Part shown: one piece after another, positions 9,819 to 54,125 of the stretch | Position numbering within the stretch: the first letter of the stretch is position 1 | Layout of the letters: each line of letters begins with the position of its first letter | Source: Escherichia phage ST2 | DNA length: 64,000 nt | Sequence record: OM982647 | Direction: 5' to 3' (one strand) | Notes under the pieces: generated by a model | Told to the model about the DNA's origin: nothing | What the model saw: only the letters and a program-made list of their open reading frames with translations | Database searches by the model: none | Translations under genes and position numbers: made by a program

Positions 9819-10184
9819 TTAGATATCGAATTCGTTAAGAACTACATCAAAGATTGCTTCGAGATGTTCAGGTTTAGCTCGGTTACTCAGGATATGACGA
9901 ATCCAAGTTTTAACCAGAAGTTTACGATTAACACCATTCCAGCAAGGATGAGTACCTAAATCACGTTGACGGAAATCGTCATCTAATGCAATTTTGAAGT
10001 TGGAACCTTCCATCGTGATTGAAACCGTGATGCCGTTTTCAAATCGCATATAAACGTAATTAGGAGTCATGCACTGTTCGATTTCACAAACTGAACCGTT
10101 ATTATGCTTCCATAAGCAAATAACTTCAGAAGAACCAGCGATACCGTTAGAAACATATTTACGTTCGAAGTTGGTGTAGTTCAT
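9819..10184 (-). CDS. Hypothetical protein
   Basis: 121-aa ORF with own early promoter. Confidence 0.45.
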   Translation of the reverse strand: MNYTNFERKYVSNGIAGSSEVICLWKHNNGSVCEIEQCMTPNYVYMRFENGITVSITMEGSNFKIALDDDFRQRDLGTHPCWNGVNRKLLVKTWIRHILSNRAKPEHLEAIFDVVLNEFDI

Positions 10185-10221
10185 TTTATTCTCCAGATGT
10201 TTAAGTTGTTTGTTGGTACAG

Positions 10222-10256
10222 GTCTATAATAACATAACCTGTACCAAAGTAAACAT
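10222..10256 (-). promoter_or_regulatory. T4-type early promoter with 8-bp inverted repeat flanking -10
   Basis: GTTTAC, 17-nt spacer, TATTAT; GGTACAGG/CCTGTACC arms at 10215..10245. Confidence 0.5.
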
Positions 10257-10258
10257 TT

Positions 10259-10630
10259 TTATTTGATTTTTGTCCACTTAGCTGAATCAATAACACCTTT
10301 TGCTTTAATCTTCTCAATTAATGACTCTGCGCGATTTCTGGCGTTTTCGTACCATACAACATCTTCAGAGTAACCAGTTTCTTCATCTTCGTAAGTTTTA
10401 GAACGAATACAGCCGTAAACTGTAGAATTCAGGCGGTAAATTTCACCAGTGAAAAAGTTTTCGATTTCGATATGATAACAAAAATCGTCTGAAGGGCCAT
10501 CAGGAGTTGTACAATAAACCACATCACCTTGAACTGAACGAACCATCCACTGTAACTCGTTAACAACTTGAGATTTATATCCATCATGGTCGCGGCATTT
10601 AATTGTAGCATTTAAATTGATAGTGTTCAT
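10259..10630 (-). CDS. Hypothetical protein
   Basis: 123-aa ORF with own early promoter. Confidence 0.45.
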   Translation of the reverse strand: MNTINLNATIKCRDHDGYKSQVVNELQWMVRSVQGDVVYCTTPDGPSDDFCYHIEIENFFTGEIYRLNSTVYGCIRSKTYEDEETGYSEDVVWYENARNRAESLIEKIKAKGVIDSAKWTKIK

Positions 10631-10664
10631 TTTATTCTCCGGTTGTTTTATTGATTAGGTGGTA

Positions 10665-10702
10665 CAAGTCTATAGTAACACATCCTACAGGAGAGTAAAC
10701 AT
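10665..10702 (-). promoter_or_regulatory. T4-type early promoter
   Basis: GTTTAC (10695..10700 revcomp), -10 TACTATAG. Confidence 0.45.
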
Positions 10703-10736
10703 CTTTTTAAACTTTTTCTGCCCTAAACGCACAAAA

Positions 10737-41376: not shown

Positions 41377-42009
41377 TCACAGTACGTTAGTTACAAGGGT
41401 AATGATTTCTTTGGACACATTAGGGAAGTCAATGTAAGTATATTTACCACCGATCTTAATCTTAACATCATTTTCAAGAGAAGTAAACAGCTTTGATTCA
41501 GTTTCTGACATGTTGTATGCAAAGATTCTAAGAGAACCATCTCGACGAATTTCGATCTGACGAATACCTAGAACTCGTTTTGCAAATCGAACTTCTAAGT
41601 TACTACGGTTTTCGCCAATTTCTTTAACTTCAACTTTATCTTTAATATTTTCAAAAACAAAGTTTGCTAATTCATGCATTTCAGGAGTAACTCCACGTGC
41701 TTTTCTAGTGTTACGTTTCTGAAGAAGTTCTGGAGCATTTTCTTGGGCAAAGAGGTCTGCAGCTTTTTGGATAATATCCATTGCTTCGCCTGTTGCTACA
41801 AGTCCATCACCGGATTTTTCGACTAAACCTTTCTTAATCAATACACCAATGTTAGAGTTAACAACCGATGCATTGTATTCCGCTTCTAGAGCTTCACGGA
41901 CATTGGCAGCAGTGGTGAAGTTGTTCTTAATGATATAAACCATTATTGCAGCAGTTTTTTCATTCAGAGCGTTTTCAGAAGCTTTGATGATGTAAGTAAC
42001 TTTAGACAT
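41377..42009 (-). CDS. motA: Middle-transcription activator
   Basis: 210 aa (T4 211); MSKVTYIIKAS...NIGVLIKKGLVEKSGDGL as T4 MotA. Confidence 0.85.
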   Translation of the reverse strand: MSKVTYIIKASENALNEKTAAIMVYIIKNNFTTAANVREALEAEYNASVVNSNIGVLIKKGLVEKSGDGLVATGEAMDIIQKAADLFAQENAPELLQKRNTRKARGVTPEMHELANFVFENIKDKVEVKEIGENRSNLEVRFAKRVLGIRQIEIRRDGSLRIFAYNMSETESKLFTSLENDVKIKIGGKYTYIDFPNVSKEIITLVTNVL

Positions 42010-42066
42010 TTTATTTCTCCAAATTAGTATTTGTTTTGATAGGTCTATAATATCATGTTTGAAGCA
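42001..42066 (-). repeat. Promoter-leader module copy A (66 bp identical to 42320..42385)
   Basis: Exact 66-bp direct repeat spanning start codon, SD and early promoter -10. Confidence 0.8.
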
Positions 42067-42076
42067 AAAGTAAACT
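42045..42076 (-). promoter_or_regulatory. T4-type early promoter for motA
   Basis: GTTTAC, 17-nt spacer, TATTAT. Confidence 0.5.
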
Positions 42077-42112
42077 TTATTTTGGGCTCTTTTTCAAAAG
42101 CCCTGGTAAAAT

Positions 42113-42328
42113 TTACAAACTCATTTCTTTAATAAGGCTAATAAGTTTTGCCTTTTTAGAACGAAGCTTTTCTAAATGATGACCATTCGAACCGCGAACC
42201 ACTAAAGAATTGATTTCAACTTCTAAGAAATTTAATTCTTCAACAAGTGCTTTACGGAGAGCATTCATACCAGGTTTGACTTTACCGAAACGAGTAGTTG
42301 TGTTTTGGGTTAATTTCATTTTAGACAT
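42113..42328 (-). CDS. Hypothetical basic protein, 71 aa (start trimmed to ATG)
   Basis: ATG at 42328 with same leader as motA; track start runs through promoter. Confidence 0.45.
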   Translation of the reverse strand: MSKMKLTQNTTTRFGKVKPGMNALRKALVEELNFLEVEINSLVVRGSNGHHLEKLRSKKAKLISLIKEMSL

Positions 42329-42385
42329 TTTATTTCTCCAAATTAGTATTTGTTTTGATAGGTCTATAATATCATGTTTGAAGCA
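42320..42385 (-). repeat. Promoter-leader module copy B
   Basis: Exact 66-bp direct repeat of 42001..42066. Confidence 0.8.
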
Positions 42386-42420
42386 CATGTAAACTGTTTT
42401 GTGAGAAAAAATGCACAAAA

Positions 42421-42436
42421 GGGAGCCGAAGCTCCC
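42421..42436 (-). terminator. UUCG-tetraloop intrinsic terminator
   Basis: GGGAGC-CGAA-GCTCCC then U-run. Confidence 0.55.
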
Positions 42437-42512
42437 TAATCATGTTTGTCCAACCAATACAGCCAAATCACTAGTGCAGCTATTGCACCGAGAAATCCTA
42501 AGGCTAGGGCAC

Positions 42513-43838
42513 TCAAAGTGCCTCCAAGTCTTTAGTGTACTCTGTCACAACATCAGTAGACTTCCAATACTCATTTTCTTCTTTCTTAGCTTTAGCTTCT
42601 TCTGCTAGTTTACGTGCTTCGTCGGAAGTGATATGGAAGATGTTAAGACCTACCAGTTTATCGACATGTTCTTTATACATTTCGATTTGTGCTAGCTCTT
42701 CAGTCAAAGCTTTACGAGTCTTGCCCTGAATCACAATTTCGCCACTGATAACTTTTTTGATGAAGTGTGCCTTAGCAAAAGCAAGTTTAAATGCTTTTTC
42801 AGATTCAAGGATTTTGTTATCAATACGTTTCTGAACGTAAGTCTTACGGACTTCAACAAAATCTTTGATTAAGTCCACTACGTTATCGTAGACCGCTAAT
42901 TTACCCTTTTCATTAATCACTGTGATGTTTTGTGAACGACGTTCGATGAGACTAAAATCTTTCATGATTTTTTCATGACGTAGCTCTTCATCATCAGGAA
43001 GCGAGTACTCTTTACGGAACTTCACCTTAAACCCAAAGCCATGTTCACCACAATCATCTTCCCATGAGATTAGACCTTTGTCTTCCAACGGGTCAAGAAC
43101 CTTACTCACATACGTTTCACGGTCGAATTTATATGGGATTTCAGTTATCTGCATTTGAGTGCGAGATGTGAACTTATATGTTCCGTGAATCTCATAACGC
43201 CCATCAACTTCATGTACTTCACCACGGAATTCTGGGAATTCAACTTTTGGCTTAGTGACATTTTTACCTTGAAGAGCTTGTAATACGGCCTTTTTGACTG
43301 ATTTAAAACTATGAGGCAGAATATTTGTTGCGTAACCGGTTGCAATACCAGAGACGCCATTCAAAAGAACTGTCGGAATAATAGGAAGATAGAATTTTGG
43401 TGGAATATGTTCTTTATCTTCATGAGCTGGAGCATATTCAGTATCTTTATATACGTTATAGAAATTTTTACTTACACGAGCAAAAATATAACGAGATGCT
43501 GCAGCTTTTTGGACTGTTCGAGAACCAAAGTTGCCTTGGCCATCTAACAGTGGATAGTTGTTGTTCCATGTGTTAGCCATCAATGCACCTGCATCTTGTG
43601 CAGAAGATTCACCATGGTGATAACCTAAATCTGCAACACCTCCTGCAATTGACGCAAGTTTATGAAATTTTTCTTTATTACCACGAGCCAAATCTAACGC
43701 ACGATGAACCACAAAACGTTGAACCGGCTTAAATCCATCAATCATGTTTGGGATTGCACGGTTTTCAACGGTGTACATCGCATATGCTAAGGCTTCGTTA
43801 TCAATAATACTTTTTAGATTACGAGAATTCAATTGCAT
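42513..43838 (-). CDS. 52: DNA topoisomerase II medium subunit (GyrA-like)
   Basis: 441 aa (T4 442); MQLNSRNLKSIIDNEALAYAMYTVENRAIPNMIDGFKPVQRF... Confidence 0.95.
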   Translation of the reverse strand: MQLNSRNLKSIIDNEALAYAMYTVENRAIPNMIDGFKPVQRFVVHRALDLARGNKEKFHKLASIAGGVADLGYHHGESSAQDAGALMANTWNNNYPLLDGQGNFGSRTVQKAAASRYIFARVSKNFYNVYKDTEYAPAHEDKEHIPPKFYLPIIPTVLLNGVSGIATGYATNILPHSFKSVKKAVLQALQGKNVTKPKVEFPEFRGEVHEVDGRYEIHGTYKFTSRTQMQITEIPYKFDRETYVSKVLDPLEDKGLISWEDDCGEHGFGFKVKFRKEYSLPDDEELRHEKIMKDFSLIERRSQNITVINEKGKLAVYDNVVDLIKDFVEVRKTYVQKRIDNKILESEKAFKLAFAKAHFIKKVISGEIVIQGKTRKALTEELAQIEMYKEHVDKLVGLNIFHITSDEARKLAEEAKAKKEENEYWKSTDVVTEYTKDLEAL

Positions 43839-54069: not shown

Positions 54070-54084
54070 AATATTCTCCTCTTG

Positions 54085-54125
54085 TTTTGATAGGTCTATA
54101 GTATCATAAACCAGAGGAGAAGTAA
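54085..54125 (-). promoter_or_regulatory. T4-type early promoter
   Basis: GTTTAC then GATACTATAGACC. Confidence 0.45.

Follow-up and report, generated by a model that had tools for sequence, protein, structure and literature searches.

Promoter-early stem-loops (PeSLs) are composite modules made of a stem-loop, a strong early promoter, a Shine-Dalgarno sequence and an ATG (Arbiol et al. 2010 PMC2839356; Comeau et al. 2014 PMC4122927), and have been described in the phages RB49/phi1, PST/T4 and nt-1/KVP40 (PMC2839356, PMC4122927). Exchange between two PeSLs that flank an ORFan deletes the enclosed gene so that a single chimeric PeSL is left, and mini-circles can be released in the process (PMC2839356, PMC4122927); PeSLs of the T4/PST class have the promoter consensus TTTACW-N17-TAYWAT (PMC4122927). 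Here we describe a comparable arrangement in Escherichia phage ST2 (sequence record OM982647), of which one stretch of 64,000 nt, hereafter the window, was analysed. In this stretch an early promoter, leader and start codon are present both in front of motA, which encodes the activator of middle transcription, and in front of the preceding 71-aa gene, here called orf71, as an exact 66-bp direct repeat. Neither the ST2 locus nor its genus is among the PeSL cases described (PMC2839356, PMC4122927), and we believe that the comparisons given below support it as a new and unusually clear case of modular shuffling of the PeSL type combined with gene conversion, a mechanism that is already known.

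Two early modules in front of orf71 and motA

In the order of transcription (minus strand), the locus consists of gene 52, a 26-aa open reading frame (ORF), hairpin 1, the upstream module, orf71, hairpin 2, the downstream module, and motA. The two modules and the genes they precede are positioned as follows.

42420..42437, minus strand: hairpin 1, stem-loop part of the upstream module; 7-bp G+C stem, UUCG loop, then the U-run UUUUGUGCAUUUUUU
42320..42403, minus strand: upstream repeat copy, which drives orf71; exact over 42320-42385
42394-89, minus strand: -35 GTTTAC of the upstream copy, followed by TGCTTCA (42385-79) and TG plus -10 TATTAT (42374-66; TATTAT itself 42371-66)
42339-36, minus strand: GGAG of the upstream copy, followed by ATG (42328-26), with ATG TCT AAA of orf71 at 42328-20
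42113..42328, minus strand: orf71, a 71-aa early gene; ORF with a match to PHROG 6200 (unknown function)
42084..42103, minus strand: hairpin 2, stem-loop part of the downstream module; 8 bp, GGGCUUUU-GAAA-AAGAGCCC
42001..42084, minus strand: downstream repeat copy, which drives motA; exact over 42001-42066
42075-70, minus strand: -35 GTTTAC of the downstream copy, followed by TGCTTCA (42066-60) and TG plus -10 TATTAT (42055-47; TATTAT itself 42052-47)
42020-17, minus strand: GGAG of the downstream copy, followed by ATG (42009-07), with ATG TCT AAA of motA at 42009-01
41377..42009, minus strand: motA, activator of middle transcription, 210 aa; Pfam MotA_activ and MotCF, PHROG 1345

Positions 42001-42066 and 42320-42385 are identical over 66 nt, from the T of the spacer TGCTTCA through the third codon, and the similarity reaches 84 nt at 94% (42001-84 against 42320-403), the copies differing at just 2 spacer bases beside the -35 element and in everything upstream. 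With at most 3 mismatches allowed, exactly 2 matches were found in the window versus 0 in 100 dinucleotide-preserving shuffles, and the pair was the best conserved among the direct repeats reported in the 64-kb window (families of 30 to 111 nt), where the sole longer family, of 111 nt, is 72% identical. The comparison and the shuffle test therefore bear out the exact repeat first noticed in a sequence-only reading of this DNA. As that reading had described, the repeat contains the start codon, Shine-Dalgarno sequence, leader and -10 element, while the -35 element stands just beyond the 66 nt yet within the 84-nt similarity; the 71-aa ORF at 42113..42328 is present on the minus strand between the copies, both genes begin MSK through ATG TCT AAA, and the two genes have identical initiation signals in the ST2 genome. 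Its assignment of the repeated unit to the promoter, leader and start of motA agrees with the motA-type module being unchanged in front of motA in Mosigvirus, and nearly so in a Klebsiella phage.

The locus was 98-99% identical to the Mosigvirus phages NHEP29, ZQ3, JS09, HX01 and ST0, which identifies ST2 as a T4-like Mosigvirus. In the phage database, 157 records covered at least 80% of the locus, and 155 records were at Mosigvirus level according to their identity band. Relatives were taken singly from the phage collection for comparison, and modules were extracted from 10 carriers of orf71 (window included) and 13 non-carriers. Since the tandem arrangement recurs in 76 independent Mosigvirus records and 17 Dhakavirus records, we exclude an assembly or polishing artefact by which the repeat would have been collapsed or duplicated in ST2 alone. 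Short exact repeats can mis-assemble, and the fully homogenised haplotype was found in only two database records; the chance of such an artefact is nevertheless close to nil, as orf71 lies between tandem modules in all of those 76 records, the independent isolate NHEP29 has the motA-type leader upstream too, and the interval holds a conserved ORF under purifying selection.

Both promoters consist of GTTTAC(A/T), a 17-bp spacer and TATTAT, with TG at -15/-14, and both ribosome-binding sites have the form GGAG-7 nt-ATG. The leader, about 30 nt long, is A-rich and unstructured (RNA fold z -0.4). Length changes of the slippage type were observed in this leader: p000v has a duplicated 5-bp AAAAC, the poly-A tract is expanded in G53, and LF82-3 has lost 1 nt. 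Each hairpin sits 11-25 nt upstream of its -35 element. Hairpin 1 (RNA fold -15.6 kcal/mol, z -4.1) fits the definition of an intrinsic terminator, a G+C-rich stem and then a U-tract, so that terminator activity can be predicted for it, and it is annotated as a terminator in SA79RD, ATK48, WFK and NRG-P0074. The same palindrome (42420-42437), distal to gene 52, is inverted in RB69 and LF82-3, which have the loop CGAA for UUCG, a hairpin-flip polymorphism. Hairpin 2 (-12.3 kcal/mol, z -4.07) folds equally well in its JS98 version, and one of its pairs is altered on both sides between genera (G-C in ST2; A-U in VR5 and JS98); it is followed by AAAAUAAA with no U-tract and therefore falls outside the intrinsic-terminator definition.

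At the sequence level, all the marks of a PeSL were found at the locus: the promoter consensus, an adjacent stable stem-loop, a Shine-Dalgarno sequence and start codon at the 3′ end, dispersed copies, and association with an indel. Like the described cases, ST2 has a composite module, tandem modules around a small gene of unknown function, relatives with a single chimeric module, and many dispersed copies in the early region; at least 10 further modules of the PeSL class lie in the window, on the minus strand, and empty sites hold one module, which is chimeric or identical to the upstream copy. The ST2 locus differs from those cases in that its repeat crosses the start codon into 3 codons and is perfect over 66 nt, whereas PeSLs are usually similar at the motif level only; in that one partner is the promoter of the essential core regulator motA and not an ORFan in a hyperplastic region; and in that hairpin 2 has no U-tract.

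Presence and absence of orf71 in related phages

The unique interval between the copies (42085-42319) was detected in 76 Mosigvirus records (at least 95% identity) and 17 Dhakavirus records (74-76%), and tblastn with orf71 returned the same 93 records, with one place in each. The sequence-only reading had stated that homologous exchange between the copies would delete exactly this gene, and had proposed comparison with related phages. We built the predicted deletion product from an exchange between the two copies, which removes 319 bp, and 78 records were contiguous in one piece across the predicted junction, in full accordance with that statement. The gene-less loci were 316-319 bp shorter than those of carriers, and the sum of the two groups (76 + 78 = 154) agrees with the 155 Mosigvirus-level records. 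Phage PTK differed from the predicted product by one T in a T-run and in nothing else, and the type phage RB69 differed by one single nucleotide polymorphism (SNP), an inverted hairpin loop and one T in a T-run. Because the direct repeats lie 319 bp apart, exchange gives one chimeric module without orf71, and these sequences show that product directly.

The position of the exchange could be followed by means of two leader types. Across the 10 carriers inspected, the motA copy always has an 'M' leader (...CAAAACAAATACTAATTTGGAG), and in 8 of them the orf71 copy has a distinct 'U' leader (...CAAAACAAAACAACCAAATTGGAG). In 11 of 13 non-carriers the U leader, that is, the orf71 type, was joined straight to motA, which places the exchange point within the 22-nt sequence TTGGAGAAATAAAATGTCTAAA, a block that the two copies share in every Mosigvirus. 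In RB69 and PTK the upstream -35 flank is instead joined to the M leader, which places the crossover in the promoter core. Several single-copy haplotypes equal the upstream copy of particular carriers: NHEP36 that of MRostami, PTE-Eco05 and phi25-307 that of AlbertHofmann/G53/ST0, and phiE142 that of FP43. When informative sites of the flanks (400 nt of motA, 550 nt of gene 52) were compared, carriers and non-carriers were interspersed there as well. Taken together, the breakpoint positions, shared haplotypes and interspersed flanks indicate that the indel segregates as a polymorphism in a population that recombines, that its breakpoints fall into at least 2 classes, both inside the repeat, and that about half of the related phages appear to have lost, or never gained, orf71 by exchange within the repeat.

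The opposite direction was also considered, in which a single module is ancestral in Mosigvirus, and orf71, hairpin 2 and a motA-type module were inserted from a circular or foreign cassette, possibly several times. The process is formally reversible, integration of PeSL mini-circles has been proposed for exactly such a geometry (PMC2839356), T4 has a single module and no orf71, and IME08 shows an additional cassette at the same place. On the other hand, the position of orf71, hairpin 2 and the two separate leader lineages are common to Dhakavirus and Mosigvirus, which indicates that the tandem state predates the split of the two genera, and motA behind an orf71-type leader in 11 of 13 gene-less genomes is most easily derived by deletion. 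We therefore regard insertion as unlikely, although event by event the aligned loci would accommodate either direction.

The rII deletions of phage T4 are deletions between short direct repeats. Such deletions arise by recombination or copy-choice (Albertini et al. 1982, as cited in PMC4122927), and the ST2 locus resembles them in that the endpoints lie in direct repeats and one copy is kept. It differs in that the repeat is a functional regulatory module and in that the event is a common natural polymorphism (76 versus 78 records).

Exchange and probable homogenisation between the copies

Among the 10 carriers inspected, the M leader was present in both copies only in the ST2 window and in NHEP29, and only 2 database records were at least 99% identical to the ST2 upstream copy. 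Because most carriers have differing leaders and so few records match the upstream copy, the perfect 66-nt identity points to a recent homogenisation. This could be the result of intragenomic conversion, or of crossing-over within the 22-nt block with a partner of the RB69/PTK type. The leader openings are ATCAAAACAAC/AAAACAACC for the orf71 type and ATCAAATAAAT/AAACAAATAC for the motA type. The start of orf71 is ATGAATAAG (MNK) in Dhakavirus versus ATGTCTAAA (MSK, the start of motA) in Mosigvirus, and this change indicates a conversion tract across the orf71 start codon.

Dhakavirus has the same architecture, with gene 52, a small transmembrane ORF, a terminator, a promoter, orf71, hairpin 2, a promoter, and motA, and since it is common to both genera the arrangement is old. 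Promoter cores in Dhakavirus are identical within a genome and differ between genomes at the same site, which reads TTATG in VR5, TTCTG in JS98 and AAACGTGTTATTAT in IME08, each in both copies. In IME08, orf71 is flanked by an exact repeat of 63 nt that is independent of the one in ST2, and an extra gene is present whose module repeats 63 nt of the orf71 module exactly.

815-1036 of the IME08 (Dhakavirus) record, reverse strand: extra 73-aa ORF, MKTLNINSFFYNANTD..., between orf71 and motA; unannotated in the record

The motA module of Klebsiella phage Biddle_MM4 is nearly identical, which indicates that, of the two copies, that of motA is old and conserved and that of orf71 is derived. The same near-identity would also be expected if selection on regulatory function alone maintained the similarity of the copies, without gene conversion, and the promoter core and ribosome-binding site are indeed far better conserved across genera than coding DNA (orf71 dS ~1-1.3). 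This explanation is improbable, however, as the non-consensus leader bases are identical in ST2 though 8 of 10 carriers inspected use a different, evidently functional leader, as VR5, JS98 and IME08 each have the same SNP in both copies while differing from one another, and as codons 2-3 of orf71 itself have been replaced by those of motA.

We favour the interpretation that the locus consists of tandem PeSL-type early modules, between which exchange deletes or restores orf71 and conversion homogenises the copies, and give it a probability of roughly 0.8. The downstream copy would be the native, widely conserved module of motA, and the upstream copy would drive orf71 as an accessory early gene. 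Exchange could be intragenomic, or could involve sister genomes or co-infecting ones, and the reverse event, or ordinary crossing-over with a partner that carries orf71, would bring the gene back; by such loss and restoration orf71 would behave as a cassette that segregates in the recombining phage population. The same recombination, acting by gene conversion, may homogenise the copies. A tract converted from the motA copy would in Mosigvirus have passed the start codon, turning the MNK... of orf71 into MSK..., and in the lineage of ST2 and NHEP29 a further tract would have replaced the orf71-type leader, giving the perfect 66-nt repeat.

Several points weigh against this interpretation. Frequent recombination in Mosigvirus could have spread one ancient indel over many backgrounds, instead of many independent events having occurred, and the loci as they stand are compatible with loss or with gain in each historical event. 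Ongoing deletion and mini-circle formation in ST2 are suggested by the comparison and are not observations. Few sites underlie the co-variation seen between the copies in Dhakavirus, and the promoter core, conserved across genera, appears to be under strong purifying selection, which alone would account for part of the identity. Lastly, the terminator role of hairpin 2, given its missing U-tract, is uncertain, and the GGAG site described below has only 9 of the 11 positions of the T4 RegB/S1 consensus, RB69-type RegB being divergent.

Regulation, gene content and other modules

A -35 element together with TGn and a -10 element defines the 'uber' early promoter class (Hinton 2010 PMC2988021), to which the ST2 promoters belong. 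Both genes would be fired right after infection from near-identical promoters. In T4, motA mRNA is inactivated by RegB, which cuts in the GGAG Shine-Dalgarno sequence (PMC2988021, PMC1702504), and the RegB/S1 site is the 11-nt single-stranded sequence GGAGRAYARAA (Durand et al. 2006 PMC1702504). The ST2 leader site GGAGAAAUAAA matches 9 of 11 positions of this T4-derived consensus and lies in an unstructured leader, and the exact optimum GGAGAAUAAAA is present in three other modules of the window; the RegB of the RB69 type is divergent (PMC3014915). As the same GGAG-A-rich site is on both mRNAs, orf71 and motA are probably under a common RegB/S1-type post-transcriptional shut-off, and shared RegB control of the two genes is plausible. 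In T4, motA is preceded by gene 52, motA.1 and a single promoter, and ST2 is like T4 in its early promoter, in the GGAG followed by an A-rich tract, and in the start ATG TCT AAA G of motA. The T4 module differs in being single and in having another spacer and leader, whereas GGAGAAAUAAA in ST2 also serves a second gene.

Both copies have the MotA-box core TGCTTCA in the spacer, ending 7 bp from TATTAT. TGCTT(C/T)A is kept in Mosigvirus, in Dhakavirus (TGCTTTA) and in Klebsiella phage Biddle_MM4, and the corresponding place in T4 is taken by the reverse complement, AAAGCA. None of the other early promoters inspected in the window contained the motif. Both this conservation and this restriction are what would be expected if the copies were MotA-dependent middle promoters, or dual early/middle promoters. 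In a T4 middle promoter, the MotA box (a/t)(a/t)(a/t)TGCTTtA is located 12 +/- 1 bp upstream of the -10 sequence TAtaaT and replaces the -35 element (PMC2988021), whereas in ST2 TGCTTCA stands 7 bp from TATTAT, no TAnnnT is found at 11-13 bp, and the canonical -35 GTTTAC, 17-bp spacer and TGn belong to the early class. The middle-promoter reading is therefore very improbable, and was rejected on MotA-box spacing. The mechanism by which T4 early promoters are shut off is still unknown (PMC2988021). A speculative and rather doubtful idea is that the spacer TGCTT(C/T)A, misplaced for activation, serves as a MotA operator that would shut the promoter off as MotA accumulates; if this were true, the duplication would put orf71 under the autoregulatory and RegB control of motA, suggesting that orf71 acts with MotA.

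The product of motA has both MotA domains, PF09114 (MotA_activ, 2.4e-39) and PF09158 (MotCF, 2.1e-8), each above the cut-off, in the expected plan of an N-terminal activation domain and a C-terminal MotA-box-binding domain; an IMG/VR search with MotA returned 2 loci only. orf71 is constant in length at 71 aa with 48 of 71 columns invariant, and against the Dhakavirus orthologues its ratio of nonsynonymous to synonymous substitution rates (dN/dS) is ~0.2 at dS ~1-1.3, which together indicate that it is a real gene; its absence from 78 related records indicates that it is dispensable. PHROG 6200 was its sole notable PHROG match, a Pfam search gave no match, and its 8 clusters in a large protein database were all within the same phage group. 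The AlphaFold model (predicted local distance difference test, pLDDT, 76) consists of a disordered basic N-terminus and a generic helical hairpin, and Foldseek against PDB and BFVD found nothing except its own orthologue. Annotation of orf71 is uneven, as NHEP29 (524-853) over-extends it to 109 aa through the promoter and ATK47/ATK48 leave it unannotated, and several gene-less genomes have spurious ORFs called over the promoter. Mosigvirus AV110 also carries orf71, and a preprint on its growth-inhibiting early peptide 'Emp' (bioRxiv 10.64898/2026.09.14.751387) mentions motA; phrase searches did not tie Emp to a particular gene, and orf71, the 26-aa ORF and an unrelated gene are all candidates.

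Upstream of the modules, and elsewhere in the window, the following features were recorded.

42513..43838, minus strand: gene 52 (topoisomerase II medium subunit), upstream neighbour; 441-aa ORF, with gp52 annotation in all relatives
42436..42516, minus strand: 26-aa hydrophobic ORF without annotation, LSALALGFLGAIAALVIWLYWLDKHD (TTG start); GGAGG 6 nt upstream, start overlapping the gene 52 stop
10168-10278 / 10614-10724, minus strand: second tandem promoter/leader pair, 111 nt, 72% identical, flanking a 123-aa gene (10259..10630)
54082..54107, minus strand: third, partial module copy, the -10/+1 segment ATGATACTATAGACCTATCAAAACAA, 25/26 nt; part of another early promoter
10254, 16377, 18967, 24985, 44963, 45475 and 55078 (starts of -35 hexamers), minus strand: early promoters with an inverted repeat around the -10 element

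The 26-aa ORF occupies the position of T4 motA.1 (49 aa) and of a 34-aa membrane-like ORF in Dhakavirus VR5, and is left unannotated in most Mosigvirus records. Both copies of the second tandem pair have the perfect RegB/S1 optimum GGAGAAUAAAA before ATGAAC. The inverted repeats of the last group bracket the -10 hexamer (e.g. TAGGACTAT GATA TAGTAGTCCTA) and place these promoters in the PeSL subclass whose stem-loop covers the -10 box. Among the window ORFs and the annotations of relatives, no homing endonuclease or integrase gene was found in or beside the cassette.

The locus illustrates clearly, in natural isolates, how small early genes are gained, lost and re-wired in T4-type phages. As the substrate of recombination is the expression signal itself, every product would be correctly transcribed and translated, and conversion tracts that cross the start codon would rewrite the first codons of the protein. 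It shows a presence/absence polymorphism of approximately 1:1 over ~154 Mosigvirus records, together with an extant form of the predicted deletion product, PTK, one T apart. Annotators should be aware that calls of orf71 are often wrong or absent. Being dispensable, immediate-early and probably co-regulated with motA, orf71 is a candidate host-takeover or anti-defence factor.

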